Below are positions 1 through 18,492 of a stretch of 18,492 bases of DNA, in pieces. The number at the start of each line of letters is the position of its first letter. Positions within the stretch are counted from its first letter, which is position 1. The notes beneath the pieces are model-generated. The model made no database searches, was not told the DNA's origin, and was given only the letters and a program-made list of their open reading frames with translations. The DNA comes from Candidatus Heimdallarchaeota archaeon. Lineage in GTDB: Archaea > Asgardarchaeota > Heimdallarchaeia > Hodarchaeales > Hodarchaeaceae. The stretch is taken from contig CP070695.1 in assembly GCA_020353515.1 (NCBI GenBank), forward strand, positions 2,886,639 through 2,905,130, given 5' to 3'. The translations under genes and the position numbers were made by a program.

Positions 1-1447
1 CTTCATCTATTTCGATTTCTAAAATCCTTGAATGCCCTGATGAATTTTCTATTGTCATAGTGGACGGATTCGATTGGTTAAACAGGTCATTATCATAAAG
101 GATGAACTTATTTGCACTGATCCGTTCTAACCCATGTGGATGGCAGAAAAGAGTATTTACCTCTTCTTCTGCTTTATTAAGCAAAGTGAACTCCCCACCA
201 CGACCAGCATCCCAAATTACTTCTTTCGATGTATAATTGATTTTCAGAATTGTATCTAGATTGCGTACATTCAAATAAATGAATTTTTCGTCTTTATCCC
301 AAACAAAACTATTGGAATGCATCCAATCAGCCCCCCCACGGAATGTCTCATTCACACCTAAGCTTTCATGTCGTGTAGTATTGAATGGAAAATAAATACG
401 GGGATCCCACTGCCATACTACATCCCCCACCCAGTTATATTCCGAGAGAAGGTCATAAATCACAGACACATTATTCCCCCCCCAAAGTTCATCAGAATAA
501 GCATATTCTAATACCATAAATGTGTCTGTGGTGGGATTATAATCAAGATCGTGATGCCCACATGGAACCTCTAATGTTTCGACCTTTCCTGTCTTATAAT
601 TCCATAATTCCATAAATCCAGGATCTTGTCCTCCCATCATGATGGTAGTTGAATTAATGAATTTATGTACAGAATGACCAGAATTTCCTAGTTGTGCGAT
701 AATTTCCCCATCGTGGTTTACAATAAAAACTGTGCCTGATCCTATTTGTGACATATGTTGCTCTCCAAGATGATTAGGATTGAGGGTGACATTTACGCAG
801 GGAAAGAGAGTTAATCCTTCTTCTATATAGAGATCTTCGTTATTTGAAGTGATCTCAATAGTAGGTCCACCAAATCTAATTGGGGTGTAAGTATCCATCA
901 CAGTAGCACTGACGACTAAAACAATTTGAGCAACTTTTAGCGCGTTCTCAAAAACACCTTCATATGTTAAATCACCTTCCAGAAAAGCCGACAATGGGGT
1001 TTTATCTTGTTTTAGTATATCAGTAAAAGTTTTAAAGTTTAATTTGATCAATAGATCGTAGTCTTGAGGAGGGTTGGTATCAACTTCTATAATGGCTACA
1101 TTATTTTCAATAATCCACCACATATCATATGTCGAGTTATCAATTTCAAACATAACGGTCTGTTTCCACCCCTTAATTAATGCAAGAATATCTGGACAGT
1201 TATCTGCCATCCATTGACTAAAATTCAGGAATGTCAACCTATCTTTTTCCCAAGAAAACGTATGATTCTCTAATTTCTCTTTTATATCATTTCGAGCAAC
1301 GATGATATGTTCTGGAGCGTCATCCAAATTAAATGGTTGAGCTTTTTCTCCCATTTTGAGAATATTAGTAATAATGAAGAGAGTAGGGATACTAAGTATT
1401 AATATGATAACACTGAGAATTGCGAGGATTTTCACTGATTTCCGCAT
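1..1447 (-). CDS. Membrane-anchored/secreted arylsulfotransferase (ASST-like beta-propeller) with N-terminal SCP2-like lipid-binding domain; 3'-partial
   Basis: Not in the ORF track because there is no stop in the window. Hand translation from ATG 1447 is open to the edge: MRKSVKILAILSVIILILSIPTLFIITNIL (signal/TM); FTDILKQDKTPLSAFLEGDLTYEGVFENALKV (SCP2-like); GHHDLDY, VVWQWD, DWMHSNS, HPHGLE, LYDND (ASST-type His motifs). SD AGGTGA lies 7 nt upstream. Confidence 0.8.
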   Translation of the reverse strand, partial: MRKSVKILAILSVIILILSIPTLFIITNILKMGEKAQPFNLDDAPEHIIVARNDIKEKLENHTFSWEKDRLTFLNFSQWMADNCPDILALIKGWKQTVMFEIDNSTYDMWWIIENNVAIIEVDTNPPQDYDLLIKLNFKTFTDILKQDKTPLSAFLEGDLTYEGVFENALKVAQIVLVVSATVMDTYTPIRFGGPTIEITSNNEDLYIEEGLTLFPCVNVTLNPNHLGEQHMSQIGSGTVFIVNHDGEIIAQLGNSGHSVHKFINSTTIMMGGQDPGFMELWNYKTGKVETLEVPCGHHDLDYNPTTDTFMVLEYAYSDELWGGNNVSVIYDLLSEYNWVGDVVWQWDPRIYFPFNTTRHESLGVNETFRGGADWMHSNSFVWDKDEKFIYLNVRNLDTILKINYTSKEVIWDAGRGGEFTLLNKAEEEVNTLFCHPHGLERISANKFILYDNDLFNQSNPSTMTIENSSGHSRILEIEIDE

Positions 1448-4987: not shown

Positions 4988-6013
4988 ATGCCAAGGAATG
5001 ATACAAAAAAAGGCACTAGTGCGACTGAGGGGTTGATTATAACCATTTTTGAGGATTATGGTCCTCAGAACATCTATAATTCTTCTCCATTATCTGAGGA
5101 AGAGGCTTTCAATCTTGCTATTAAATCTTTAACTGCACTAAGTTCAGATATTCCCCAATTTGGAGAGATTCGTTCTTATGGACCAATACCAACACCTCGG
5201 GATCCCTTCTTAACAATTGGATTCATTTTTTCTTTAAAAGCAGTGGATTCTGAAGATGTTCGTATTACTCAGTTTGGTAGAATAGTAGTTTTTTGGGTCA
5301 TAACGCGATCTAGCTCAACAGTAAAATATGTTGGTGTTCTAAAGCAATTGTTACGGAGAACAATTCGGTCATATAAGATACGTACAGATATTGATCTTAA
5401 TAATAAGGAAGTATTGAAAAAAATTGATGAGAAATTGCAGATTATAGAGACTGGTATTGAGTCGTTTTATTTAACAGATAGGGGGACGTTTGAACCTTTT
5501 TTAGAACTCGCTCTTCTTCCTACAAACGCTCCAATTATGTTGGTCGATAACCCAAATAAGCAGATAAATGTTTTATTACGAGAAGAAGTTACACCTTCAC
5601 TTAAACTTAATATGCTACATCTTACTAAGAATTTCGCGGGGAAACTGCCCAAAGGATCCCTCTACAAAGTAGAAATTATATCAGATGAGTTAACTGTTCA
5701 AAGAATGCTTTCTAAAATTGGGTTGATCTCTCAAACCGAAACAGGCTTTCAATATCGAATCCGATTTACCTCTCAACTCTCCTACGATGAAGTTGATGAA
5801 TGTTTAAATTCTCTCTTTACTCAGAAAAGACAATCATTGGCAAAATTGATTGTCCTTTCATATGAGAAGAAATCTCCATTAAACCTTGAGGAGGCTGCAG
5901 TTCAAACAGGAATTTGTGAAGCAATGGTAAAAGATTTAATTTTTGGTTTAATAGATGTTGGTCTTGTTAAAAATGGGAAAATCGAGAATGGCTTTTTAAG
6001 TTTCAATAAGTAG
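4988..6013 (+). CDS. Longin/uDENN-like + possible gelsolin-like + C-terminal winged-helix (PCI-like) protein, paralog 1
   Basis: 341-aa ORF colinear with 6101..7138. IITIFEDYGPQ hairpin; FIFSLKA..DVRITQFGRIVVFWVI; C-terminal LNLEEAAVQTGICEAMVKDLIFGLIDVGLVKNGKIENG. CDS is secure; domain calls are inferred. Confidence 0.65.
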   Translation: MPRNDTKKGTSATEGLIITIFEDYGPQNIYNSSPLSEEEAFNLAIKSLTALSSDIPQFGEIRSYGPIPTPRDPFLTIGFIFSLKAVDSEDVRITQFGRIVVFWVITRSSSTVKYVGVLKQLLRRTIRSYKIRTDIDLNNKEVLKKIDEKLQIIETGIESFYLTDRGTFEPFLELALLPTNAPIMLVDNPNKQINVLLREEVTPSLKLNMLHLTKNFAGKLPKGSLYKVEIISDELTVQRMLSKIGLISQTETGFQYRIRFTSQLSYDEVDECLNSLFTQKRQSLAKLIVLSYEKKSPLNLEEAAVQTGICEAMVKDLIFGLIDVGLVKNGKIENGFLSFNK

Positions 6014-6100: not shown

Positions 6101-7138
6101 ATGAGTAAGGAAAATACGTCTAGTGGAAGCACAATAACAGATGGTTTAATTATTTCAGTTTTTGAAGATAATGGTCCTGTTAATGTATATAATTCTTCCC
6201 CGTTAAACGAAAGTGAAGCATTTAATATGGTTTTAAAGGCATTACCAGCAATAGGCTCTGATGTTCCACTAGAACATGGGGAAATACGTTCATACGGGCT
6301 TATACCAACACCCAAAGAACCTTTTTTATGTTTAAGTTTTATTTTTATGCTGAAAGCAGAGAAAACAGATGACTCTAGGATTGCTCGTTTTGGACGAATA
6401 ATAGTATTCTGGATAATAACAAGATCTTCTGCCCTAATGAAATATATTGGACTTATCAAGCGCATGATTAGGCGAGAAATTCAAATTTACCACATTAAAA
6501 CTGATACTGATCTGAAAAAAGAGGAAATTATGAGAAAGATTGATAAGAGAATCCAAATCATTGAAGTAGGTATTGAGAGTTATTATATCTCTGATATGAA
6601 TTCAATTGAGTCATTTTTAGATCTTGCATTTGTTCCTAAAGAAGCGCCAATTATGTTGGTGGATAAGCCAAATAATCAAATTAAGGTGTTATTGAGAAGC
6701 CATTCTAATCCGAGTAGAAAAATGGAATTATTACAGTTAGTAAACGATTATAAGAGAAACATTCCAAAGGGTACGATCTATAAAACAGAAATAATCTCTG
6801 ATTCTCTTACAGTTCAACAATTATTAGCTAAGACTGGTTTTATTACTCAATTTGATATTGGTACTACCATTAGACTTCGATTTACTAATGAGCTGACCTT
6901 TGAGGAGCTTGACAGCTTTTTTAACTTTCATCTTACACCTAAAAGGCAGCAGTTGGTTACTCAAATTATACAAGCTACTGATAGCAAAATTCCATTAAAT
7001 CTGTATGAATTATCGGTCCAAACCGGGATAACAATGGAATTAATTGAAGAGTTTATTGCGAGTGCTATAAACTCGGGATTAATTCAAGATTTCGAAATTA
7101 AGAATGGATCCCTTGTTTTTATAAAAGAAGTGGAATAG
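6101..7138 (+). CDS. Longin/uDENN-like + possible gelsolin-like + C-terminal winged-helix protein, paralog 2
   Basis: 345-aa ORF sharing YNSSPL, EAFN, GEIRSYG, IPTP, FGRI, FW-ITRSS, APIMLVD, PKG, EIISD, PLNL and QTGI with paralog 1. Confidence 0.65.
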   Translation: MSKENTSSGSTITDGLIISVFEDNGPVNVYNSSPLNESEAFNMVLKALPAIGSDVPLEHGEIRSYGLIPTPKEPFLCLSFIFMLKAEKTDDSRIARFGRIIVFWIITRSSALMKYIGLIKRMIRREIQIYHIKTDTDLKKEEIMRKIDKRIQIIEVGIESYYISDMNSIESFLDLAFVPKEAPIMLVDKPNNQIKVLLRSHSNPSRKMELLQLVNDYKRNIPKGTIYKTEIISDSLTVQQLLAKTGFITQFDIGTTIRLRFTNELTFEELDSFFNFHLTPKRQQLVTQIIQATDSKIPLNLYELSVQTGITMELIEEFIASAINSGLIQDFEIKNGSLVFIKEVE

Positions 7139-7201: not shown

Positions 7202-8113
7202 TTATAAAAGACCTCGAACGATATTGGCGATTTGTTCCATTTTAACAAGCACATAATGAAGAGGTGCGACCTTCTTGGCAATTCCAGTAAGAAGGAGTTC
7301 CTCTTTAATTTTATGAAAGACAAACATATAATCATCTGTTTCTAAAGTCGTTTTAAAGGTAACTTCAGTCTCGAACTCAGTTTTAATTCTATCGTAATTA
7401 GTTAACCAGAGATTAGCTGGAAGGATGATTCTTTCCACTAATTCACCCTCTTCAAATACAGGTAATCCATCATCAGTATATATTGCGATTCCTGATAGCT
7501 CGCTATGTTGTTTGATGAATTCCTGTATTGCATCAGATACAGTTTTTGCCTTTGTACTCTGGAGTATTAATGTTTGTATCATTTCACCAATAGCCAAGTA
7601 TATTGATTGATCAAAGATTGAAGTTTTACGATAATAAATTTTAATATCTTTGACAGGAATAAAATACTGTTTCATGGTTTCACTAACTTGCTCACGCATA
7701 TCAGGCAGTAAAAGATCAAGTTTATGAAATAAGCAAAAAACAATGGCGCTAGGAGAAAACTCTGCCAGTCTATTTACTGCGTGATCAAAATAAAATTTAC
7801 TTGTTGAGACTTGATCAAAATTACTAACATCAACTACCCAAACAAGAATTGTAACATCACTAAATATGAATTCAGCCTGTTCTCCGACAAATACAGAAAT
7901 AAAACTCTCTTGGCCACCACAATCAAAAATCTGGAATGCACTATCAATGATGCTTTTTGTTGAACGCGTGTAATTTATTGTCGCAGAATAATCTTTTACA
8001 TCCTCTGGTGATTTTCCTTCGAAAACTACTGACCTAATGCTACTCTTACCACTCGCTCCAAGTCCCATGAATAGTACTTTTTGCGCTGGAGGTGTTATTG
8101 TCAATAACTTCAA
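7202..8113 (-). CDS. Rag/Gtr1-family (RagA-like) small GTPase with C-terminal roadblock-like domain
   Basis: G1 KVLFMGLGASGKSSIRSVVF, G2 SATINY, G3 FDCGGQ, G4 FCLFHKLDL, G5 KTSIFD match RagA/Gtr1 motifs. C-terminal LSGIAIYTDDGLPV...LLLTGIA is roadblock-like. The true start may be TTG at 8104, which has GAGG 9 nt upstream. Confidence 0.9.
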   Translation of the reverse strand: MKLLTITPPAQKVLFMGLGASGKSSIRSVVFEGKSPEDVKDYSATINYTRSTKSIIDSAFQIFDCGGQESFISVFVGEQAEFIFSDVTILVWVVDVSNFDQVSTSKFYFDHAVNRLAEFSPSAIVFCLFHKLDLLLPDMREQVSETMKQYFIPVKDIKIYYRKTSIFDQSIYLAIGEMIQTLILQSTKAKTVSDAIQEFIKQHSELSGIAIYTDDGLPVFEEGELVERIILPANLWLTNYDRIKTEFETEVTFKTTLETDDYMFVFHKIKEELLLTGIAKKVAPLHYVLVKMEQIANIVRGLL

Positions 8114-8510: not shown

Positions 8511-10730
8511 TTGCAAATGTCTGAATGGGTGTCTGAATCTGAAATAACGGCTCGATTGGGTTATAAAATATTGATTGCTGGCTTAAGTGAAGCTGGGAAG
8601 ACTGCCGTAAAAAGAATTTTCTTTCTTAAACAGCAGACTGAAGATGTTGATAGTCTTTCGGCTACAATCAATTATGAAAGGATGTCACTTACGATCCATG
8701 ATACACCAATCACGATTGTAGACCTTGGTGGACAGAAGATATTCTTAAAACGATTCTTAAGCGGATTTAGCCCATTTGTCTTCAGTAGTGTGAAAACTTT
8801 TGTTTTTCTAATTGATGTGGCCAATAAAACTTCTCGGAATAATGCAATTCAATATTTTCAATCTTGTCTCGAAAAACTCTCAACTTTTTCTCCTGAAGCC
8901 ACAATCTTCGTTTTTCTACATAAAAACGATTTAGTAAGAGACTCACCTAATTATGAAAGTATTCATGAACAGTTAAAGGAACAATTTCAACTAGAATCTT
9001 CCCAAAAACTCAGATTTTTTCGAACTACAATTTACAGACCAGAAACAGTTATTAATAGTTTCGGGCGCATTTTTGAACTAACTATTCCCCAATTAGCTGA
9101 AAGTGAGTTTGTTGATTTTAAAACAATAGGTACAATTGAAGAACATCATGAAGAAGATATGACAATACGAGATTCAACACCTAAAGCTGAAATAGATCAA
9201 AAACCCGAGCCAATTTCTCCTACTGCTCCCAAAATAGCTGGCAATCAAGTAATCTTGAAGAAGTTACAAGGTTTGATGCAGCAAGCTGTAAAAAAAGAGT
9301 TTCCATCAGCATATCATTCCCCAAACCAAATGTCTCAAAAAGCCATATTTCTTGGAAATGCTGCAACAGAAGAATCTACTACGGAAACAATCTTAACTTC
9401 AGCAAAAGTGGTGGAGGAAACACCCACTTCTCCACAAATAGAAACCCAGCCGCATTCTACGCCGGTAGATGAAGAATCCATTGCATCTGAAGCTCAAGAA
9501 ATATTGAAACACGAAATAACAGAAATAAATCCCCAAATCAGTCATTTGGTGGACTTTTTCCGAATAGAAGCAAACGAAGCTGTAGAGATCGTTAATACTG
9601 GGTATGGCGATGTTTTTGAAATGGCAGTTACATCAGGGATTCCAATACCACTTGTAACTGATGTCATGTTGAAATATTTACCCTTTATTCAAAAATCACA
9701 AGGACTTGAGAAATATAAGCTAATAAATCGGGAAAAGTTATTAGAATTATTTCATGTTTTCTTGAAAGGACAATTACAAGAAAAAGATATAGTTAAATGC
9801 CTTGTATTAGTAACAGAAAAACCTAAAATGAGTATTGATGATATTGCAAAGAACTATCTCACTCCAAAGAAAAAGGTAAAAAAGAAGAAAGAAATCAAGG
9901 AGAAAATCCCGCTTGACTTTGCAAAACTAGACATCCCTGTTGAAGCAGAAAGTGTTGAAGGAATTATTACTTTACCCGATACTCAGGGAATGGGCTTTAA
10001 AGTCGAGATTATTAAACCAGAATGTTTGAATGCTCGTTTAACATTCCATTTACAAGGCCCTGTTGGCCAACGAGAACTTATTGGAAGCTCAATAGTTTCA
10101 ACTAAGATTACAAGTCAAGAGATCCTTTATCTTTTAGCTTACGAGATGAATATGACAGGATTGGGTATTTTTGAAGATGGAATCGGTTCTATGAATTTCG
10201 CTGCAAAGATAATTCGTGAGGCAATCCAACAAGTTCGTGAAGAGAACTTAAGCTCCACATCAGAGGTAAAAACCAAGAAAATCCGAAAAGAGGAGGGATA
10301 TCTGACTGAAACCATAAGTTTCATTATTCCTATGGAGATTAAAATTGAGGAAAATCACATTCTCATCCCTGACAGTGAGAAGGTAGCTTTTTTAGTAGAA
10401 AAAGCTAAGAAAGGGCTATTATTAAGTTTCGTCCAGCGAGGTTTTCCCATAGGCCAAGTAAATGTTGCAGACTCCATTACTGTTCCTCAAATTCGAAGAT
10501 TATTAAAAGAAGCAATGCAGATACCAATTGAGTCAGAAGGAGCCGTTGATTTTGCAAGTCGTATTATCCATGCTGCTATAAGAAGTCTAATTGAATCACC
10601 AGAAGCAGTACTTCCAATTAAATCAACAAAAATCCAACCTAAAATTATAGAAAAACCTGTTTTAGAAGAACCAAGAGATGAGACGTCAGAGAAACTCTTG
10701 AGTTACCTAGAACTTCTAGAAAAAGACTGA
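8511..10730 (+). CDS. Rag/Gtr-like GTPase with long C-terminal extension (linker, helical domain, two repeated alpha/beta domains)
   Basis: KILIAGLSEAGKT, SATINY, DLGGQ, FLHKNDL and FRTTIY in the first ~190 aa. Start is TTG 8511 or ATG 8517. Confidence 0.85.
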   Translation: MQMSEWVSESEITARLGYKILIAGLSEAGKTAVKRIFFLKQQTEDVDSLSATINYERMSLTIHDTPITIVDLGGQKIFLKRFLSGFSPFVFSSVKTFVFLIDVANKTSRNNAIQYFQSCLEKLSTFSPEATIFVFLHKNDLVRDSPNYESIHEQLKEQFQLESSQKLRFFRTTIYRPETVINSFGRIFELTIPQLAESEFVDFKTIGTIEEHHEEDMTIRDSTPKAEIDQKPEPISPTAPKIAGNQVILKKLQGLMQQAVKKEFPSAYHSPNQMSQKAIFLGNAATEESTTETILTSAKVVEETPTSPQIETQPHSTPVDEESIASEAQEILKHEITEINPQISHLVDFFRIEANEAVEIVNTGYGDVFEMAVTSGIPIPLVTDVMLKYLPFIQKSQGLEKYKLINREKLLELFHVFLKGQLQEKDIVKCLVLVTEKPKMSIDDIAKNYLTPKKKVKKKKEIKEKIPLDFAKLDIPVEAESVEGIITLPDTQGMGFKVEIIKPECLNARLTFHLQGPVGQRELIGSSIVSTKITSQEILYLLAYEMNMTGLGIFEDGIGSMNFAAKIIREAIQQVREENLSSTSEVKTKKIRKEEGYLTETISFIIPMEIKIEENHILIPDSEKVAFLVEKAKKGLLLSFVQRGFPIGQVNVADSITVPQIRRLLKEAMQIPIESEGAVDFASRIIHAAIRSLIESPEAVLPIKSTKIQPKIIEKPVLEEPRDETSEKLLSYLELLEKD
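9927..10589 (+). repeat. Protein-level tandem duplication of a ~90-105 aa domain
   Basis: Copy 1 (~9927-10235): IPVE..IITLPDTQGMGFKVE..IGSSIVSTKITSQEILYLL..MNFAAKIIREAI. Copy 2 (~10320-10589): IPME..HILIPDSEKVAFLVE..IGQVNVADSITVPQIRRLL..VDFASRIIHAAI. Confidence 0.75.
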
Positions 10731-10780: not shown

Positions 10781-12106
10781 TCACTTGTGATCTTCAGTAG
10801 TGGTCATATATTTTCCAAAAAGATTCAAAATATCATCCATTGCAATTTGGAGTTGTTCCCGATTTACTCCTTTCGATCTTTCAAACCAACCGCGTTTAAT
10901 CGTTGATTTTGAGTCGTCATGATATGCTATTAAATTTGTAGCGTCATTGAAGACATCACGTAGTTCTGGAATAAGAGGTAAACCAAAGAGTAAGAGAATA
11001 GAAGACCGGTCTATATTTGGATCATCATAAGTCACAAATGATGGTTGTATCGATCCGCCTTTTACAAGGTAAGGTGCAAGAATCTTTTTTAAGTGAGCTG
11101 AATATTCTAGCTTAGCTATATCCTTATGTCCACTAAAAATGGAATAAACAGAACCAGCCATGGGTTTTGTTTCAATATCAGTTAAAGAACAGTGATTAAC
11201 AGCATATCTTGCTGCGAGAGCCATCTGTTTTTCCATACTACCATATTTAGGTAGAAAGTACATATCCTCGAAATAACAAGGAACCACCACTGGATCCAAT
11301 CTTCGGGAATAATCAGCTAGATCTGTAGTTGGCATGACTTTTTTGCCTGGTTCCTGAATGCTTGGGGAAAGAATTGCCTCTATAGTTTGTAAAGCCAACG
11401 GATTTACCAACTGAGTAAATTCTACCTCTGTTTCCATTCGCTGTTGCTCATCACTTGAAGCTAAGTCAGCAGAATCAATGCCTAAAGATTGGTCTAGTAA
11501 TGCACTTGCACGCCCCTCCCTCCAAGCCATAACCCTTTTTAACATTGTTTTATTTGATAATAAAAAGATCAAATTAGGCCCTTTGTTTGGTTCTAATTGA
11601 TTTCTTAATAAGGTTGATAACGACCAGATTGAGTTTATTGCTTCTGATGATTGATTCTCAAACGGTAAAACACCAAATACATAAATAAAAATTCGTCGTT
11701 CTTCTGAAAATTGCTTATGGAGAAGTTCTACTAGTGCTGGGGTTCCACCACAACCAGTACCACCTCCAAGACTGGTTAGAATGATAAAACCAGAGACCCC
11801 CTCATATCCAAGTCCTTTTAATTGATTAAGAATAAGATCCTGATTTTTTATGACAAGATCATAACCTTCCTTAAATTTTCCTCCCACACCTATTTCTTCA
11901 TCAGAATACATCAGAGTATTTTGGTTAGGAATTGAATACTCAGTACGTGTTTTCATAAGATCAGTCTTATCAGTGTTTATTATAAGATATTCACGGATAC
12001 GAGATGCTCCTGTTTGTTTCTTACTTTTTTGGATGTAGGAACCTACAAGATTTGAGCCACATTCTCCTGCTCCAATTATGAATACATCTGCTTCTCTACT
12101 TACCAC
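10781..12106 (-). CDS. Tubulin/FtsZ/CetZ-superfamily GTPase, divergent, with tubulin-like C-terminal helices
   Basis: T1 IIGAGECGSNL, T2 INTDKTDL, T3 GVGG, signature SLGGGTGCGG, VLPF, LSN, T7 TTDLADY. GTG start with AGGAGG SD. Confidence 0.92.
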   Translation of the reverse strand: MVSREADVFIIGAGECGSNLVGSYIQKSKKQTGASRIREYLIINTDKTDLMKTRTEYSIPNQNTLMYSDEEIGVGGKFKEGYDLVIKNQDLILNQLKGLGYEGVSGFIILTSLGGGTGCGGTPALVELLHKQFSEERRIFIYVFGVLPFENQSSEAINSIWSLSTLLRNQLEPNKGPNLIFLLSNKTMLKRVMAWREGRASALLDQSLGIDSADLASSDEQQRMETEVEFTQLVNPLALQTIEAILSPSIQEPGKKVMPTTDLADYSRRLDPVVVPCYFEDMYFLPKYGSMEKQMALAARYAVNHCSLTDIETKPMAGSVYSIFSGHKDIAKLEYSAHLKKILAPYLVKGGSIQPSFVTYDDPNIDRSSILLLFGLPLIPELRDVFNDATNLIAYHDDSKSTIKRGWFERSKGVNREQLQIAMDDILNLFGKYMTTTEDHK

Positions 12107-12114
12107 AATAGGAT

Positions 12115-12120
12115 CCTCCT
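12115..12120 (-). promoter_or_regulatory. Shine-Dalgarno AGGAGG overlapping the upstream gene's TAG
   Basis: Plus-strand cctcct at 12115-12120; upstream stop at 12121-12119; 8 nt to GTG 12106. Confidence 0.75.
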
Positions 12121-15100
12121 ATCTATTTGTTACATAGAGTTCTACCGCTGAAGATAAATATTGAATCATCGGTTGATGATTATATGCTTCCTCAATTTCT
12201 CGTTTGGCATTTGCAATATAAGTTATCTGTTCATCACTGTTAGTCGTTGGTTTATAATCACTAATAAATAAAAAGAGAACATTGTGCCATTTTGAAATCA
12301 CTGGTAACCAATCTTGCTTCCATTGCGTTTTTAATTTGGAGATTGTTGTTAAAAGATCATAAATTTCCATTAGATTAGCTGATGATTGAATTTTTTCTCT
12401 TGCAGCATTTAATTCATTGAGTGAGAAAATCTCTTTTGAGCATTCTTCAAGTTTAAATCGAAAAACTTCTTGAATACTCTGATAATATGGTAATCTTGGA
12501 TCAGTTTCTAGTTCAGATAAGTAACTATCAAAGTTCTCCTGTTCTAATTGTCGAATAGCCTGAATGAGTTCCTTTGACCTTTGTATTACTTCAACTGTTG
12601 ACTTAGCGATGAGATCAAAGGACCAAAATTGAATCGCTACTTTTGCTTGTTTAATTGCGACAACTTGAGGCATTAATAAATGTTGAGCGTTTTTCCAACC
12701 TAATGCTTGAACAAAATCAAATATCCTACCAGCAATGTCATTATTATCTTCAATTATTTTAAATAATGATTTCTGAAGCTCCTCATTTTTTAATATCTTA
12801 TCCAGTTCTACAAAAGATTGAGTAATCATTTCAATAGACATCATATCAGAAGAATCTGCTTGAACTAACTGTGTAAAGACTTCGATTTGTTCTCCTACTA
12901 AATTTTGGAGACTAATTCCAAGAGCTTGAAGTTCAGCAATCCGCATGAGTAAGTTTTTGCTTGAGATGCTTAGGAGTTCCATAAGTTTTGCTAATAAGAC
13001 ATATTCGTAATCATGGATGGTTTCAATGACCAAACGATGGATAGATTCAAGAGTTTGATCTTTTCTGGGAATTGTGCTCTCTAAATAGCTATAGACCTTA
13101 CGAACTTCTGGGGAAACCTCTCCCATTACTTCTGTGATTCGGGGAAGACTAACTGTGACCTTATTGTAATAGAAAGCTTTTAATTTCTCAAGACATTCTT
13201 GGGATTTACTAGTTGCGCTACTAAGATAAAATTCAAACTTTGACAACGCTTCTTCTGCGCCTAATGATAGGTTTAATTCTGATAAGGCGGAATCAAGTAT
13301 CAGAAATAGAGGATTAAAAATAGCTGAATAATGTGGTGGCAGAGATTTGTACTGTTTTAACCAGTTTGACAAGATTTCCCGACATTTTAGCTGGACTAGT
13401 TCTGTTTTTTTATTGTTAAATGTGGATAAACGGAACCATAATTCTAAGAGCTCAGAGTAATCCAAAGCTTCAAGATCTCTAGGAATTTCAAAAATAGGAT
13501 CTGATCCAATTACCTCGTTGAAGTATTTTAAGGATGATTGGTTTGTCCTTTCCATTAGATCAATCTGTTTTAAGGTTTCTTCGATCATCAGATTTTTAGA
13601 AGAAGACATCACTTTTTTGAAGTCAAAATAAGCTCTAATTGTGGAGACGAAATTTCGACTAGCCGCAGTTCCAGTTAATTGGGTTAATAGAGTGTTTTTC
13701 TCTTTTCTCAAATCTACTGGAACCTCTCCAGGTATCATTGGAAATGTCAAAGAATCAATTTTATTTTTGAGAAATGAAATTACTTCTCGTTTCCATTCCT
13801 CTACTTTTTCAATTCTACTAAGTAATTCAGATAGGTCCAACTCACTAGCATCTTCAACAAATGGAGGACGGGGAATCTGTGAATCTGATTCAAGTAACTG
13901 TAGCACTGTAACGTCTTTTAAGAAGTCCTTTATGAATGCGGCCGTTAATGTAACAAATTGTTTATATAATCGTTCATAAGATCGTCGGTACAGTAAAAGA
14001 GTTTGTACTTCGGATTCTGAAGCCATCTTCTCATAAAGAGATGTAAGTTCAGCTTGAAAATTAGGCGGAAAACTGCTTATTCCCTTTCTTTCTAATTGGT
14101 TAACATTGATTATTGTGTCATTTACGGCGTGTCTAGTCTCCTGTAAAACATTAACTAGCCTGTGTTTCCAAATAGTGACTGCTCGAAGATAACTTAATAA
14201 CTCAGAAGGACTGTCAGATTGCAGATTAACATTTGGTGGTTTGAGTGATATCAATGCACTGGAGTCAGAATCAGTGAAATCCAAGCTCAAACTGTCACTA
14301 ATCTTGTCACGTAGAATATTAAGAAACTCATTATAATAAGTTTGAAAATGTTTCAATTTTCTTACTGCTTCTTCAATATTAACTTCTTCTTGGACCTGAT
14401 TAGCACTTTCAGTTGCATTTGCTAATAAAGTATTGGGTATACTAACCCCCTCCTGAAGAGCTCCCTCTGTGACTTGCTTCATTTCTTCAACAGAAGCAAA
14501 TTTCTTTATCCCGCCGAGAATCTGGCTTTTCCATTTATTTATCTTTTCAAAATAGGTCATTAATTCAGTGATAGAAGCTTTTGGATCTAATTCAGGAGGT
14601 GAAGCCATCCATTTGTCTGTGAGTGCAGGGAACATTCCTTGAATCTGGACGATTAAATTTCTTGTTGTTGTTCTTGCACGTGTTATCTCTGATTTAAGCG
14701 TTGTTCTGTATTTTGTAGTATATTGTGAGATTTTAGAGTTTAGTTGATTCAGCTCACCAATCGATTTTGCCATTTCAATCTGATTAATAATCTCTTTAAT
14801 TCCATGGTATTCCTCCATATCGGGAATGATTTTCCTTTTAGCTCCCTCTTGGATAGAATAAATTAAATCATGAGCTGACTGCAGTAATTTCTCTTGAACA
14901 GTTTCAGATGATACAGTAAGTTGTTGATTAATGAGTTCCTCTTCTTTTTTAAGAGTAGAATACGATTTTAATAAATCAGAGATCGCAAGAGAATTGAGAG
15001 TGTCTTTTGTTAGGATTTTTGTTTGTTGATATATACTTGCGTCGAGAGAGATGAGATCTTTATACATTTCTATTTTAGATTGGTTATCGTTCAGAATTAC

Positions 15101-15541
15101 TTCGCAAAGTGATCTTATTTGCATAGTTGTTTCAGCTTGAACTTTCTCTACTTCTTCAAGAAAAGATGACATTGTATCAATTTCTGAAGTCAATGGAAAC
15201 CTCAGATTCCTTAAAAAACTCGCAGCTTGGGGAGCAACAGCTGATAGGGCTTGGATTTGAGTTTCAAGGAGAGGTTTTAGATCTTTTATCAAAGAATTAA
15301 AGATACATTGCAAACAAGCTTCCTCAGATCCCATTAAATCCGACTGTAACTCTTCCTGTTGCTTTTTTAATCCCCGTTTAGCGAGTCGTCCAGCTTTATC
15401 AACTTCTGCTTCTAACTGAGATTTTTGCTGAATAAGCTTAGATAACTTTGTCAGTTCAGGTGCGCAAACAGGTTTTGAGAGGAGCTTATTAATTTTGGAA
15501 AGAATTTCTGATATTAAGGTTAAGTTATCTGAAGACATCAA
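12119..15541 (-). CDS. Large all-alpha-helical repeat/coiled-coil protein of unknown function
   Basis: 1140 aa rich in L/E/K/Q/S, with no evident TM segment or P-loop and a ~120-127 aa internal period. Start is probably ATG 15538. Confidence 0.8.
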   Translation of the reverse strand: MMSSDNLTLISEILSKINKLLSKPVCAPELTKLSKLIQQKSQLEAEVDKAGRLAKRGLKKQQEELQSDLMGSEEACLQCIFNSLIKDLKPLLETQIQALSAVAPQAASFLRNLRFPLTSEIDTMSSFLEEVEKVQAETTMQIRSLCEVILNDNQSKIEMYKDLISLDASIYQQTKILTKDTLNSLAISDLLKSYSTLKKEEELINQQLTVSSETVQEKLLQSAHDLIYSIQEGAKRKIIPDMEEYHGIKEIINQIEMAKSIGELNQLNSKISQYTTKYRTTLKSEITRARTTTRNLIVQIQGMFPALTDKWMASPPELDPKASITELMTYFEKINKWKSQILGGIKKFASVEEMKQVTEGALQEGVSIPNTLLANATESANQVQEEVNIEEAVRKLKHFQTYYNEFLNILRDKISDSLSLDFTDSDSSALISLKPPNVNLQSDSPSELLSYLRAVTIWKHRLVNVLQETRHAVNDTIINVNQLERKGISSFPPNFQAELTSLYEKMASESEVQTLLLYRRSYERLYKQFVTLTAAFIKDFLKDVTVLQLLESDSQIPRPPFVEDASELDLSELLSRIEKVEEWKREVISFLKNKIDSLTFPMIPGEVPVDLRKEKNTLLTQLTGTAASRNFVSTIRAYFDFKKVMSSSKNLMIEETLKQIDLMERTNQSSLKYFNEVIGSDPIFEIPRDLEALDYSELLELWFRLSTFNNKKTELVQLKCREILSNWLKQYKSLPPHYSAIFNPLFLILDSALSELNLSLGAEEALSKFEFYLSSATSKSQECLEKLKAFYYNKVTVSLPRITEVMGEVSPEVRKVYSYLESTIPRKDQTLESIHRLVIETIHDYEYVLLAKLMELLSISSKNLLMRIAELQALGISLQNLVGEQIEVFTQLVQADSSDMMSIEMITQSFVELDKILKNEELQKSLFKIIEDNNDIAGRIFDFVQALGWKNAQHLLMPQVVAIKQAKVAIQFWSFDLIAKSTVEVIQRSKELIQAIRQLEQENFDSYLSELETDPRLPYYQSIQEVFRFKLEECSKEIFSLNELNAAREKIQSSANLMEIYDLLTTISKLKTQWKQDWLPVISKWHNVLFLFISDYKPTTNSDEQITYIANAKREIEEAYNHQPMIQYLSSAVELYVTNR
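13390..14602 (-). repeat. Protein-level helical repeats, period ~120-127 aa
   Basis: aa~314 SPPELDPKASITELMTYFEKINKWK; ~434 KPPNVNLQSDSPSELLSYLRAVTIWK; ~558 RPPFVEDASELDLSELLSRIEKVEEWK; ~685 EIPRDLEALDYSELLELWFRL. Confidence 0.7.
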
Positions 15542-15603: not shown

Positions 15604-16539
15604 TCATATTTCAGTACTAGAGGATTGAATCTGATCCAATGCTAGAGAACAACGAGCAATATATTCCGCAATTTCTTTAACCTGAGATCTAAGTGTTTTT
15701 CGTACAGTTAGATCTACAAATCGAAATGGAACATTTGACAAATCTTCCCCTGTAGTTCCCAAGATTGTCTCTGTGATTTCATTGAGCTTTTTAGAAATAT
15801 GTGTAGACATAACCGAGACATATTTTGCCCTTTCATCTTGAATCATAAGGCCAAGACTTAATCGGTGTAATTGTCCTTTATCTAACCATTTTGCAGGAGT
15901 ATAGATGAATATAGAGAAAGATTTATCAGCAACTTCAAGATTAAGCACAGAGGAGCCAAGATCTTTTCCAAATTGATCATCTTTTTGTGTTGACTCTTCG
16001 ATCTGTTTTTCAGCAAATAGAGAAAATACATCCAAAATTTCCTTTTTATCGACATCTGTAAATTCAAGAATTGTTTCCCAAAGGCTAGAAGTTGAACCTT
16101 GAAGTGCTGAAAAAAAATCAATTATTATTACAACATTGGCTTCCTTCATAACATTGTAGACTTCTTCATAAGGTATAGTTTCAGAAAGAGCTACCATACT
16201 TTGAAAAGTAGAAGCATCAGCTTCTAATAATGAAACAAACTCCGTTTCTGCTGAACTTGTTTCTCCGACTTCTTCCCCAAAAGCCATAAAAGCAATGTCT
16301 TCAAGATCCATCTCTTGAAGTTCTTGCTTTTGCTTTTCCCTCTCTTGTATATCTGAGAATAGAGCGTCGACCATTGATGAATCATAAAATAATTGATAAA
16401 TCCTCATCATAAGATCATCTAAACTCTTACCTTCTCCATCTTCCATATATTCTTTTAAAATTGACCGCATGACAACATGTTTCGCAATTCGTGCACCACG
16501 AACTTGATCTTCCACTTCTTCTGTGACAAATTGGGACAT
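15604..16539 (-). CDS. Hypothetical protein: acidic helical N-terminus plus possible degenerate longin/uDENN-like domain
   Basis: 311-aa ORF with ATG start. VVIIIDFFSALQGS and FSIFIYTP..WLDKGQLHRLSLGLMI follow the longin strand order. CDS is secure; the domain is tentative. Confidence 0.55.
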   Translation of the reverse strand: MSQFVTEEVEDQVRGARIAKHVVMRSILKEYMEDGEGKSLDDLMMRIYQLFYDSSMVDALFSDIQEREKQKQELQEMDLEDIAFMAFGEEVGETSSAETEFVSLLEADASTFQSMVALSETIPYEEVYNVMKEANVVIIIDFFSALQGSTSSLWETILEFTDVDKKEILDVFSLFAEKQIEESTQKDDQFGKDLGSSVLNLEVADKSFSIFIYTPAKWLDKGQLHRLSLGLMIQDERAKYVSVMSTHISKKLNEITETILGTTGEDLSNVPFRFVDLTVRKTLRSQVKEIAEYIARCSLALDQIQSSSTEI

Positions 16540-16728: not shown

Positions 16729-17094
16729 TTAATGTGTGATTCTTAGTATTATATTGTCGAGTTCTTTTGATTTTATAATAAGGTATTGAAAATTTATTCT
16801 TTTTTTTTTTCCGACTCGTTCCCACACCTTTTTTAGAGTTTGTTTTGTCCAAATCATTCCTGAATTCTTTGAACATGGCTGTTTATACACTTTCTCAATC
16901 TTGAATGATGTTCCTAGACCTTCATCATCAATGTTCCAAAATGAAGCCAGTATTTCCGTAAGATCCCAAGCTTCTGCAGCAGAAGATGCTGATATAAAGG
17001 CGCAATTATCTACTCGTCTATCATCTAGTACTATTGTGAATTTTACATAGAAGATTTTTTCAATTAATCCGTCATTGGACATATTTCTTTCCAA
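16729..17094 (-). CDS. Small hypothetical protein
   Basis: 121-aa ORF filling the gap and co-oriented with its neighbours. AAGGGG lies upstream of the TTG (alternative ATG 17082). The C-terminus after an A11 tract is uncertain. Confidence 0.5.
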   Translation of the reverse strand: MERNMSNDGLIEKIFYVKFTIVLDDRRVDNCAFISASSAAEAWDLTEILASFWNIDDEGLGTSFKIEKVYKQPCSKNSGMIWTKQTLKKVWERVGKKKRINFQYLIIKSKELDNIILRITH

Positions 17095-17140: not shown

Positions 17141-18492
17141 TTAATTTTCTTCTGTAATTAGTTCAGTTGTCCCATAAATCTTTTCATATGATAACACGAT
17201 TGACGAGACTAATTGTCTCAATTTAAAGACTTTACTACGAATTTTGTTCTTGTCTGAATCCTCATTGTCCATAAGTTTGTGTATTGCGTGTATTTTCCCT
17301 TTAATCTCCTCTTTGAAAGATTCAACTAATGGGAATAATTCTTGATGAACTAAAATGTTACAAGTAAGATTCTCTTGGCCTCCTCTAGCAGTTGGCCGTT
17401 CTAACGCGTACCCAAAACTCAGTACACTAGTACGAAGACCTCGGGCTAATACAAAGTCATAACTAGAAGGGATCTCAGTATCAAAGTCATCACAAAAGCC
17501 AGTACCACTAAAAGATCGATCAGAAAGGTCCACCAGCTTTGAAAAGTTATCTTTCAAAATTTCTGGTATAACTATAATTGGGATAGGCCCGTGTCGTTGG
17601 TCGAAAAACGATACCACTACCCCAATTGTGTGAGAATCAAGTGATGCCATTACTTCAGCTTCAGAGATATCTGCAATTTTATCAAGGACTAATTCTTTGT
17701 CAAGACCAACCAATTCGGGTTTTCGAATGAATTTCACATATACAACAGAACCGAAGATTGCAACGAAAATAGTGATCCCAACAATAAGCAGGACAAATGT
17801 GGGTTCAATACCTGCTGATATATAATTAAAGCGGGTTTCACTGATGCGATCAGGATCATCTAGTATATCATAAGCAATACCACTATTTCCCGCGCTATCT
17901 GTGGTTACAATATAGTACAAAATATCTCTACTCGTACCATTATGATCAAAGGGAACAGTGACCTTATAAATCGGAACACCGTCCGTAGTGGTATTATGAT
18001 AAACCATACTTGCTTTTCGGTATAGTTCCGCCTCCTCTTGGCTAATAGATGATCCTAATCCTGCTAAAGACTGGGTAGTTTCGTTGGATGCCTCCCTAAA
18101 GTAGTAATAAATCGATACATCGGTAATGTCAGACCCATATTCAAGAATTCCAGTGTAAAAAGCAATTTCTGTGGGATTACTTGGATCATCAAGCTTGTAT
18201 CTCGTTAACTCCTTTTTCACTCGGGGGGGAGTTAAATCCTTTACTGTCAAGTTGAAGGTCACTTGTGAAATAATATCATATTGTCGCAAGTTTTCACTGG
18301 AATTGTATTCTACTGTGGCGATTGCTTTAACAACGATGACCACTGTTGTCTCAAGATATTTTTCGAGCTTTTCGATCGGAATTTGATAGTGTAAATTCCA
18401 GAGATTACCAATTGATGCTTTATCAAAGTAATCAGAGTCCGTTACATTATCATAGTATTTTATTGTGAATTCAACTTTGAAATCTTCCTCTG
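17141..18492 (-). CDS. Single-pass membrane protein: beta-rich ectodomain, TM helix, cytoplasmic folliculin/SMCR8-like longin (uDENN) domain; 5'-partial
   Basis: The frame stays open beyond GTG 18343 to the window edge (..EEDFKVEFTIKYYDNVTDSDYFDK..). Ectodomain has N-x-S/T sequons (NVT, NSS, NLT, NET, NTT, NGT) and VKDLTPP. TM FVLLIVGITIFVAIFGSVVYV (~17729-17797) is followed by KFIRK. Cytoplasmic part has VVVSFFDQRHGP and ERPTARGGQE. Confidence 0.8.
   Translation of the reverse strand, partial: EEDFKVEFTIKYYDNVTDSDYFDKASIGNLWNLHYQIPIEKLEKYLETTVVIVVKAIATVEYNSSENLRQYDIISQVTFNLTVKDLTPPRVKKELTRYKLDDPSNPTEIAFYTGILEYGSDITDVSIYYYFREASNETTQSLAGLGSSISQEEAELYRKASMVYHNTTTDGVPIYKVTVPFDHNGTSRDILYYIVTTDSAGNSGIAYDILDDPDRISETRFNYISAGIEPTFVLLIVGITIFVAIFGSVVYVKFIRKPELVGLDKELVLDKIADISEAEVMASLDSHTIGVVVSFFDQRHGPIPIIVIPEILKDNFSKLVDLSDRSFSGTGFCDDFDTEIPSSYDFVLARGLRTSVLSFGYALERPTARGGQENLTCNILVHQELFPLVESFKEEIKGKIHAIHKLMDNEDSDKNKIRSKVFKLRQLVSSIVLSYEKIYGTTELITEEN

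Follow-up and report, generated by a model that had tools for sequence, protein, structure and literature searches.

At one end of the window, the whole stretch of 18,492 nucleotides that was analysed, from an Asgard archaeon of the Heimdall/Hodarchaeales type, lies a gene for a surface protein (P0001) whose reading frame stays open up to the window end and closes with a TAA stop codon (17141-17143). The window is one entire contig within a scaffolded genome, flanked on both sides by joins of 100 Ns; the 5′ truncation of the P0001 gene is therefore genuine, and its missing part cannot be retrieved from the present assembly. Reading past the window for the full gene was rejected, since the 100-N scaffold join leads to an unrelated contig. 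The P0001 gene is located upstream of a same-strand set of rod and tubulin-like genes. The 121-aa gene next to it has a paralog directly downstream of a 3687-aa paralog of the P0001 family in the same genome. Two genes for Rag-like GTPases and two tandem paralogs are also found in the window (Table 1).

Table 1. Features of the locus, with positions numbered along the window.
Feature	Position	Strand	Remarks
C-terminal 449 aa of type-I surface protein (P0001), gene	17141..18490	-	5′ end cut by contig end
Membrane-proximal ectodomain, residues 1-228	17807..18490	-	two tandem β-sandwich (FnIII/Ig-like) domains, 6 sequons
Single TM helix, residues 229-252	17735-17806	-	hydropathy, Kyte-Doolittle 2.87
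Cytoplasmic longin domain, residues 253-449	17144..17734	-	two N-terminal helices, then β-β-α-β-β-β-α-α
FFDQRHGP, residues 295-302	17585-17608	-	'GP motif' of GAP-type longins, β1-β2 hairpin
RPTARGGQE, residues 365-373	17372-17398	-	β4-β5 loop
121-aa gene	16729..17094	-	46 bp downstream of longin-tail gene
303-aa Rag-like GTPase	7202..8113	-	Gtr1/RagA G domain (DCGGQ, HKxD) and C-terminal domain; candidate partner; orthologs adjoin longin-tail genes across many genomes
739-aa large Rag-like GTPase	8511..10730	+	second candidate partner
Two tandem paralogs, 341 and 345 aa	4988..7138	+	function unknown; accompany 303-aa Rag-like and longin-tail genes elsewhere

The P0001 fragment contains two β-sandwich ectodomains, a single transmembrane (TM) helix and a cytoplasmic domain of 197 residues. 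The structure model of the ectodomain consists of two β-sandwiches, and this region is kept in ~100 relatives, immediately N-terminal of the TM helix. N-x-S/T sequons are enriched in it (6 in 228 residues, against 2.07 expected from shuffles, P = 0.008), and across the family their density is 2.8 per 100 residues outside versus 0.87 inside. Hydropathy reveals one TM segment in P0001, followed on its C-terminal, cytoplasmic side by the positively charged stretch KFIRK. Full-length relatives run from an N-terminal signal or anchor through a lectin/Ig-type ectodomain and one TM helix to a C-terminal domain inside, and at the family level the criteria for a type-I single-pass protein (N-terminal signal, ectodomain, one TM helix and cytoplasmic C-terminus) are met. 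For P0001, whose own N-terminus is missing at the contig end, the signal peptide is inferred from these relatives. The tail domain occurs in 151 cluster representatives, many of them with an N-terminal hydrophobic signal, and nearly all of the long ones end in it, with the domain taking up the final ~200 residues right after the TM helix. Two full-length paralogs in the same genome show the identical layout, one of them with Laminin_G_3 and DUF2341 modules outside. Surface proteins of this type reach about 10,000 residues and are present in 1-11 copies per genome. Their ectodomains resemble giant adhesin or cell-surface modules more than they do receptors that bind a ligand, and signalling, if any, may run in either direction.

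The AlphaFold2 model of the cytoplasmic tail shows a longin fold (pLDDT 91.7). A DENN domain is absent, the protein ending 197 residues past the TM helix and the model comprising only the longin fold and helices. The closest eukaryotic match in VIA-align is a folliculin-complex chain (8dhb_J; Z 12.9, rmsd 2.7 Å over 135 residues, 18% identity), ranking above NPRL2 and C9orf72 (Z about 11). Two further chains, 6nzd_H and 6ulg_L, score 11.7, the GATOR1 chains 11.0-11.5 and the C9orf72-complex chains 11.2. The non-GAP longins overall score 7-9, with DENND1 at 8.8 and TRAPP, Ykt6 and Mon1 at 7-8. By Z, the GAP-type longins thus outrank other longins, and far outrank PAS and GAF domains. Foldseek likewise places chains of the FLCN-FNIP2 complex on top, in a list that also holds LOV/PAS and GAF domains, and the structure atlas points to Heimdall Folliculin, C9orf72, Avl9 and uDENN FLCN/SMCR8 clusters. 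The highest score overall (Z 13.3) belongs to a Lokiarchaeal longin whose function is unknown, and the non-catalytic Lst4 longin scores equal to NPRL2; fold alone therefore cannot tell catalytic from non-catalytic longins. As predicted by the model, the tail adopts a longin fold that is closest, among eukaryotic structures, to a folliculin-complex chain.

At the sequence level, P0001 itself has no match among the Pfam and NCBIfam models. The Pfam Folliculin family (PF11704) gives sub-threshold matches in 28 of 104 relatives (best E 2e-4), and every other family is matched by at most 6 of the 104. Searches of PDB sequences with phmmer and profiles, using the tail, its family profile and the soluble folliculin-like family of this genome (whole or longin-only), returned no folliculin, and the matches obtained were coiled-coil noise. 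The link of the tail to PF11704 is indirect and runs via this soluble family, most members of which carry PF11704. Aligned by hhalign, the tail and soluble families match with E 3.4e-5, at a probability of only about 72%, and the GP and ARG motifs are paired with their counterparts at an identical spacing of 68 residues. A PF11704 search of this genome found the soluble 439-aa gene only and left the tails unmatched; weak matches (E≤1) were also obtained in 8 of 14 control genomes. The soluble 439-aa folliculin-like gene, at a separate locus (L013), adjoins a Roadblock gene.

In an alignment of the tail domain (104 sequences, 22-80% identical to the P0001 tail), residues F296, G301, P304, R369 and R425 are invariant and P302 is nearly so, and the GP and ARG motifs are the best-conserved features of the domain. 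In the model, the HGP tripeptide (residues 300-302) sits between strand 36-45 and strand 49-56. A GP motif occurs in FLCN, SMCR8, C9orf72 and NPRL2, and its presence beside the finger is a published mark of GAP-type longins, including those of Asgard archaea (PMC12290439). Arg369, encoded by an AGA codon at 17386-17384, lies within loop 113-119, between model strands 101-112 and 120-130. The β4-β5 loop has been named as the site of SMCR8 R147, the counterpart of FLCN R164 (bioRxiv 10.1101/2020.04.16.045708). Invariant and located in this same loop, Arg369 is a candidate arginine finger; the loop correspondence is taken from the literature, without residue-level superposition on FLCN, and catalysis is inferred. 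A second ARG sequence in the tail (LARGL, Arg350) was rejected as the finger, being unconserved even among same-genome paralogs.

An earlier note, made from the sequence alone, had described a receptor-like protein with FLCN/SMCR8-type motifs, and this observation is confirmed. The topology that it proposed, with a sequon-rich ectodomain, one TM helix and the tail inside, holds for P0001 and for the full-length relatives, and the ectodomain is truncated as stated, the gene being cut at the contig end. The proposed folliculin/SMCR8-type domain also held, as a longin fold. The arginine codon held as well: the residue is the invariant Arg369 of the β4-β5 finger loop and, given the lack of conservation of Arg350, the correct arginine had been picked. 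As for the FLCN and SMCR8 motif strings that were quoted, the literature confirms FLCN R164, SMCR8 R147 and the GP motif, not the strings letter by letter.

In many genomes, some of them distant, members of the longin-tail family are neighbours of genes for Rag-like GTPases. Both GTPases of the window score best as Gtr1/RagA and contain the HKxD motif; in the 303-aa protein this Rag-type motif is retained together with the catalytic glutamine (DCGGQ). At three syntenic loci (L014, L017 and L023) longin-tail genes are flanked by orthologs of the 303-aa Rag, the 739-aa Rag and the 345-aa gene, and at L014 the ortholog of the 739-aa GTPase directly adjoins the longin-tail gene. The rod and tubulin genes are missing from these three loci, which retain just the Rag-like and 345-aa-type genes. 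In an order-level search, 19 of 33 genes of the 303-aa-Rag type shared their contig with a longin-tail gene no more than about 10 kb away, and two such pairs are only 63 bp apart. An adjacent Rag-like gene is also found at three loci from other families or classes, where the tails are only 26-40% identical. No Rag gene lies near four of the five same-genome paralogs, nor at loci L016 and L022. It has been noted that Asgard GAPs and GEFs are not matchable to their GTPases from genome layout (PMC10933270).

Two neighbouring proteins, of 311 and 345 residues, were considered as candidate second subunits, and neither gave a significant profile match. The idea that the former is a 'dead longin' partner remains unproven (hhalign probability 4%), the structure atlas offering feature-level leads only, to NPR2 and LST7 clusters, below 0.9. 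A longin identity of the 345-aa protein is equally unproven (hhalign probabilities 0.3-1.7%), and here the atlas gives a vague pointer to winged-helix proteins.

A complex of two tails with the G domain of the 303-aa protein, GTP and Mg was predicted with ipSAE values of 0.75, 0.75 and 0.74, against 0.00 for the best of three controls. This mark is attained by 58 of 80 solved complexes versus 2 of 110 mismatched pairs, in a calibration that excludes custom alignments and riding ligands as used here. At least 75% of the contacts agree between the runs, and the partner pLDDT is at least 84. In the predicted interface, tail residues 44-51 and 117-122 face the P-loop (18-20), switch I (41-52) and switch II (68-71) of the GTPase. 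The GP hairpin is predicted to contact the P-loop and Gln68 of switch II, and Arg369 to contact residue 44 of switch I, beside the nucleotide. The scoring covered the GTPase only, so that the tail homodimer is unsupported. The score may also reflect memory of the solved FLCN-RagC, GATOR1-Rag and C9orf72-SMCR8-ARF1 structures; since similar complexes have already been solved, the predicted complex shows likeness only.

The link to Rag GTPases, which had been claimed in the earlier note, is supported by the conserved gene neighbourhood and by the predicted complex. GAP activity and the relay of an extracellular cue, both also claimed, are still inferences. The 'Arf-like' target named alongside fits less well, since Gtr1/RagA is the best-scoring assignment for both GTPases of the window and HKxD is present in each.

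Taken together, these observations are best accommodated by a folliculin-type tail that acts as a GAP on a Rag-like GTPase, a reading that is favoured by a modest margin. The architecture, the fold, the invariance of the motifs, the gene linkage and, at the level of a model only, the interface are shown; that the tail catalyses as a GAP, that it forms a dimer and that it is regulated through contacts of the ectodomain are inferences, without activity data. In this view, P0001 would be a type-I cell-surface glycoprotein with a stalk of β-sandwich domains as its ectodomain, which in relatives extends by up to thousands of residues with lectin and Ig-like modules, and it would hold a ~200-residue folliculin/Lst7-type (uDENN) longin tail on the cytoplasmic side of the cell membrane. 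As a longin dimer, the tail would most probably dock on the nucleotide face of a Rag-like GTPase, i.e. the neighbouring 303-aa protein and perhaps also the 739-aa one. Arg369 would then be inserted from the β4-β5 loop beside the GP hairpin to speed GTP hydrolysis, as do FLCN R164, SMCR8 R147 and NPRL2. The nucleotide state of the Rag-like switch, or at least its location, would thereby be tied to the surface protein.

In the most serious alternative, which remains possible, the tail would work either as a platform without catalytic activity or as a GEF, with the arginine and the GP motif serving binding and not catalysis. A platform would bring Rag-like GTPases to the membrane beneath the surface protein, or keep them there, in a Ragulator-like or MglB/TRAPP-like manner; a GEF would stimulate the exchange of nucleotides, which is what longin and DENN modules mostly do. 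GEFs and scaffolds do account for most longin and roadblock platforms (PMC10933270), a GEF role was suggested for the Asgard FLCN-like module by Liu et al., the fold-search scores of Lst4 and the Lokiarchaeal longin are as high as that of FLCN, and gene linkage and the predicted interface indicate binding at best. Against this, the two invariant features of the tail are precisely those reported to set GAP-type longins apart, and in the model the arginine is in the finger loop, near switch I and the nucleotide, while the GP hairpin rests on Gln68 and the P-loop.

The adhesin-like nature of the ectodomains (Laminin_G_3, DUF2341, Ig/FnIII-like stalks; up to about 10,000 residues and 1-11 copies per genome) would also fit an inside-out or sorting role, in which no cue passes inward and the tail is a handle for a Rag-like GTPase or other cytoplasmic machinery that controls where giant surface adhesins are placed, how they cluster or how they are turned over. 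The position of the P0001 gene upstream of the same-strand rod and tubulin-like set, whose products might be such machinery, and the lack of an own Rag gene for most paralogs speak in its favour. This reading is nevertheless considered unlikely: the rod and tubulin genes are not found in the three syntenic loci, and the idea is compatible with GAP chemistry, so that it rivals the direction of signalling only. That the likeness is accidental, with a generic longin/PAS-like α/β domain carrying chance GP and ARG strings and unrelated to folliculin, could be argued from the shortness of the motifs, from the lack of a significant direct sequence match to FLCN and from the LOV/PAS and GAF domains in the Foldseek list. 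It is very improbable, given that both motifs are invariant in 104 sequences at identities down to 22%, that their spacing equals that of the PF11704-bearing soluble family, that GAP-type longins rank by Z above other longins and far above PAS/GAF, and that the Rag-like gene linkage is conserved.

If the GAP reading is pursued further, a folliculin-Rag switch would operate at the cell membrane in the archaeal lineage nearest to eukaryotes, as the output of a large family of adhesion-type receptors that carry their own longin GAP. This bolder reading is possible but less likely than not; were it true, the lysosomal FLCN/GATOR-Rag nutrient pathway would descend from, or be sister to, a plasma-membrane receptor-to-GTPase pathway. 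Rag GTPases and longin GAPs such as folliculin and GATOR1 form the core of eukaryotic nutrient sensing, the origin of which is unknown. The key arginine is kept and Rag-like genes lie nearby; a surface-to-Rag link may therefore predate eukaryotes, a possibility for which no activity data exist. Asgard Rag-like GTPases and soluble folliculin-like longins were previously known. Here, a longin with GAP hallmarks forms part of a surface protein, and its gene is paired with those of particular Rag-like GTPases, which provides a concrete testable pair (residues 253-449 and the 303-aa GTPase) and a physical location, the cell membrane. Should the activity be real, P0001 would represent a prokaryotic single-pass receptor bearing a eukaryote-type GTPase regulator.

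Among known systems, the best overall structural match, the Lokiarchaeal Roadblock-Longin protein (PDB entry 8YQG), is likewise an Asgard longin and dimerises, but it is soluble and roadblock-fused, whereas the P0001 tail is membrane-anchored. Soluble Asgard longins of the folliculin/SMCR8 type with FD..GP and ARG motifs have already been published from the same lineage (Traffic 2025, PMC12290439; Liu et al., bioRxiv 10.1101/2020.10.19.343400); the membrane-anchored form was not found in the literature searched. Those proteins are cytosolic, comprise about 430 residues with an extra C-terminal domain and are recognised by PF11704, whereas the domain of the P0001 family is the C-terminal tail of type-I membrane proteins. 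NPRL2 (of GATOR1) and SMCR8-C9orf72 share the fold class (Z about 11) and the GP motif with the tail; in them a longin dimer presents an arginine finger to the nucleotide face of a Rag or Arf GTPase. Unlike P0001, they are part of soluble heteromeric assemblies that contain additional domains (DEPDC5, WDR41), and their identity to the tail is only 8-9%. More generally, longin GAPs of eukaryotes form heterodimers and possess DENN domains, neither of which has been shown for the tail. Plexins are single-pass receptors as well: a large region outside the cell is followed by one TM helix and, on the inside, by an arginine-finger GAP that acts on a small GTPase. They are animal proteins whose GAP domain has a RasGAP-like and not a longin fold, and their likeness to P0001 is functional only.

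The closest counterpart is folliculin/Lst7, the catalytic subunit of the FLCN-FNIP GAP for RagC/D (PDB entries 8DHB, 6NZD and 6ULG), which has in common with the tail the longin fold, the GP hairpin, the arginine between β4 and β5 and the association with Rag GTPases. The tail differs from folliculin in that it lacks a DENN domain and an identified partner of the FNIP/Lst4 type, and remains below the PF11704 threshold. In being longin-only it resembles yeast Lst7, from which the DENN domain present in FLCN and SMCR8 is also absent. Finally, FLCN is a soluble protein that is recruited to lysosomes, whereas the tail of P0001 is tethered by its TM helix behind a large ectodomain.

The longin-tail protein is encoded by a minus-strand frame of 449 residues, open up to the end of the window. 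Because the window is one entire contig within a 4.94-Mb scaffolded genome and 100-N joins directly flank both sides, the 5′ truncation of the gene is real and the DNA past the join is unrelated. Hydropathy reveals a single transmembrane (TM) segment, followed by KFIRK. Residues 1–228 contain 6 N-x-S/T sequons (2.07 expected, P = 0.008) and the cytoplasmic part contains 2 (0.8 expected); across the family there are 2.8 sequons per 100 aa outside against 0.87 inside, hence an N-out, C-in topology. The genome contains four further tail paralogs and one broken tail fragment. Two paralogs, with open frames of 3687 aa and 1173 aa, are full length: both begin with a hydrophobic signal or anchor, continue with a long ectodomain (bearing Laminin_G_3 and DUF2341 domains in the 3687-aa paralog) and, after a single TM helix, end in the C-terminal domain shared with the window's protein. 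The single-pass layout proposed by an earlier note from sequence alone (ectodomain, one TM helix, cytoplasmic domain) is thus upheld. An 81-aa tail fragment (67% identical), which runs from the ARGG loop to helix 3 and lies downstream of a paralog designated B at a distance of about 1 kb, looks like a decayed copy; stop codons are present in tail copies of several relatives.

Coordinates of the longin-tail protein features and neighbouring genes (window positions unless prefixed; G000:C1 is the sequence of the window's genome)
Feature	Position	Strand	Remark
HSP90/HtpG-type chaperone	3029-4912	+	full length; Pfam HSP90, E 1e-104
341-aa tandem paralog	4988-6013	+
345-aa tandem paralog	6101-7138	+
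303-aa Rag-like GTPase	7202..8113	-
739-aa Rag-like GTPase	8511-10730	+
1140-aa rod and tubulin/FtsZ-like pair	10781-15541	-
311-aa protein	15604-16539	-
121-aa gene	16729-17094	-	46 bp downstream of longin-tail gene
Longin-tail gene	17141..18490	-
TM segment	residues 229-252	-
FFDQRHGP	residues 295-302	-
RPTARGGQE	residues 365-373	-
Arg369	17386-17384	-	codon AGA
Arg425	17216-17218	-	R173 of domain
Tail fragment (locus L006)	G000:C1:338948-339190
439-aa folliculin-like gene (locus L013)	L013:199-2571 (G000:C1:679138-681510)		follows 164-aa Roadblock/LC7-like gene
Paralogous rod and tubulin/FtsZ-like pair	G000:C1:690860-695755
Paralog of 121-aa gene	G000:C1:3125122-3125448		60% identical
Third copy of 121-aa gene	G000:C1:3257180-3257434

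A search through all 1.84 billion representatives matched 151 proteins to the tail. Every named match is a 'hypothetical protein' from Hodarchaeales, Heimdallarchaeota, Kariarchaeaceae or other Asgard bins, with no Pfam domains on record, and in nearly all long matches (proteins up to 5809 aa) the tail forms the last ~200 residues, directly past the TM helix. Tail copies, 1–11 per genome and with open frames of up to 10,431 aa, occur in 22 of 24 genomes of the window's own order. Phylum-wide, 32 of 151 sampled genomes match, the strong matches being confined to the window's class and one other family; weaker matches elsewhere (E 1e-9 to 1e-13) are frames of ~250 and ~470–500 aa, for which the status of soluble longin is not established.

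Just five columns (F296, G301, P304, R369 and R425) are invariant in a 104-sequence alignment of the tail (22–80% identity to the query), and P302 is nearly so. The two motifs picked out by the earlier note are therefore confirmed as the most conserved features of the tail, and the arginine codon lies exactly where the note had placed it. The AlphaFold2 model obtained from this alignment (pLDDT 91.7) shows two N-terminal helices followed by a β-β-α-β-β-β-α-α arrangement, with the first hairpin bearing the GP and the loop that joins the fourth and fifth strands bearing Arg369. Foldseek, suggested earlier as a check against FLCN/SMCR8, returns chains of the FLCN-FNIP2 complex as top matches. With VIA-align, Z-scores against the tail model are 13.3 for the Lokiarchaeal longin 8yqg, 12.9 for 8dhb_J, 11.7 for 6nzd_H and 6ulg_L, 11.0–11.5 for GATOR1 chains, 11.2 for C9orf72-complex chains and for Lst4, 8.8 for DENND1, and 7–8 for TRAPP, Ykt6 and Mon1. 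The output labels PDB entries, not individual chains; on the basis of length and residue range (2..268), 8dhb_J, 6nzd_H and 6ulg_L, the three chains from folliculin complexes, are most likely FLCN itself. Neighbours in the structure atlas are Heimdall Folliculin, C9orf72, Avl9 and uDENN FLCN/SMCR8 clusters.

SMCR8 R147, the counterpart of FLCN R164, is located in the βL4-βL5 loop of the longin domain (Tang et al.), and FLCN R164 sits beside the RagC nucleotide (Jansen et al.). A 2025 paper in Traffic reports that FLCN, NPRL2, SMCR8 and C9orf72 are distinguished by a GP motif adjacent to the finger, a motif which non-GAP longins lack and soluble Asgard longins possess. Arg369 and G301-P302 fit both of these descriptions; the finger position claimed by the earlier note is supported by invariance and strand-loop placement, without a residue-by-residue superposition on FLCN. 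Arg350, the other ARG arginine of the tail, was rejected as the finger, as it varies even between paralogs. The second invariant arginine, Arg425, lies in the last long helix, outside the predicted GTPase interface, and its role is unexplained.

The sequence-level ties between the tail family and folliculin are weak but consistent. No Pfam model matches the protein itself and profile searches of PDB sequences never reached FLCN; below threshold, PF11704 (Folliculin) is matched by 28 of 104 relatives and every other family by at most 6. The same genome encodes a soluble 439-aa protein, adjoining a Roadblock gene, which bears FDEEHGP and PEARG; most of its homologs carry PF11704, and its own match is just below the cut-off (21 bits). 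Alignment of the two families by hhalign (E 3.4e-5, probability 72%) places GP opposite GP and ARG opposite ARG, with a spacing of 68 residues in each.

The G domain of the 303-aa GTPase was modelled in complex with two copies of the tail, plus GTP and Mg. The ipSAE values were 0.75, 0.75 and 0.74, whereas none of the 3 controls scored above 0.00; in calibration, 58 of 80 solved complexes attained this mark, as did 2 of 110 mismatched pairs. At least 75% of the contacts agree between runs, with partner pLDDT of at least 84. The confident interface involves, in domain numbering (residue minus 252), tail residues 44–51 (the FFDQRHGP hairpin), helix 1 and residues 117–122 (the ARGG loop), and on the GTPase the P-loop (18–20), switch I (41–52) and switch II (68–71, including Gln68). 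Arg117 of the domain (Arg369) contacts switch I residue 44. Because similar complexes have been solved (8DHB, 7T3B, 7MGE), the pass may reflect memory, and likeness is shown, not binding. Custom alignments and ligands fall outside the calibration, and the score covers no tail homodimer.

Both GTPases of the window, of 303 and 739 aa, are of the Gtr1/RagA type, and the former, widely conserved in Asgard bins, retains DCGGQ and the Rag-type HKxD. Of 33 genes in the order that resemble the 303-aa Rag, 19 lie no more than about 10 kb from a longin-tail gene of the same contig (lists compared by hand); many of the genes without one sit on short contigs. The chance expectation is a few percent, with the proviso that related genomes do not count as independent cases. 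Of greater weight than the within-order count are three loci in other families or classes, with tails only 26–40% identical and a Rag-like gene within 0.2–0.4 kb. The linkage is not universal, being absent from two further loci (L016, L022) and from four of the genome's five paralogs. At locus L014 the longin-tail gene adjoins orthologs of both GTPases (51% identical for the 739-aa protein) and of the 345-aa gene; L017 combines a 303-aa GTPase ortholog with two longin-tail and two 345-type genes; and at L023 a 3684-aa family member is followed, after 60 bp, by a relative 67% identical to the 303-aa GTPase.

Several neighbouring genes merit description. About 540 residues past the G domain of the 739-aa GTPase have no family match. 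The 341- and 345-aa paralogs are 51% identical to each other, and their type neighbours 303-aa Rag-like and longin-tail genes at L014, L017, L021 and L023. By eye their N-terminus has a longin-hairpin look, with an invariant GP (FEDxGP) and invariant arginines preceding a hydrophobic strand, and atlas matches weakly suggest a C-terminal winged helix; profile comparisons with the tail family gave nothing significant. The 121-aa gene has no family match and is absent from L014, L016 and L017; its paralog lies directly downstream of the 3687-aa paralog. Among the language-model neighbours of the 311-aa protein are fungal LST7/Folliculin and Asgard clusters in which 19% of members are NPR2; its hhalign alignment to the tail family spans the domain and is not significant (probability 4%), and it is conceivably a non-catalytic longin partner. 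The paralogous rod and tubulin/FtsZ-like pair shares a contig with the soluble folliculin-like gene, at a distance of about 9 kb. HSP90, present here, is uncommon in archaea.

The best-supported account, which we favour by a modest margin, is that the tail is a membrane-anchored, Lst7-like longin that would engage Rag-like GTPases at the cell membrane and would probably work as an arginine-finger GAP; catalysis is inferred, without activity data. The ~200 residues preceding the TM helix are also kept in about 100 relatives and are modelled as two β-sandwich domains (pLDDT 87.5), a predicted generic extracellular stalk that best matches tandem receptor FnIII pairs and the Ig-like repeats of SiiE, a giant adhesin. 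The ectodomains look like adhesin or surface-layer modules, and any sensing by them is unresolved. For this reason the relay of an extracellular cue, as envisaged in the earlier note, is not established, outside-in signalling being one of three possible readings: the GTPase side may instead exert inside-out control on the ectodomain protein, with no inward cue, or the tail may simply place a GTPase under a surface protein.

Earlier publications describe Rag GTPases in Asgard archaea as well as soluble folliculin-like longins with GP and Arg motifs; a transmembrane form is not mentioned in the literature searched, including a full-text search. To the membrane-anchored longin the window contributes a tail copy clustered with both Rag-like genes and a passing, model-predicted complex for the tail/303-aa pair. 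The Roadblock plus FLCN-like module of Liu et al. is matched by the L013 gene pair of the same genome, and the longin-tail protein recalls the functional layout of plexins.
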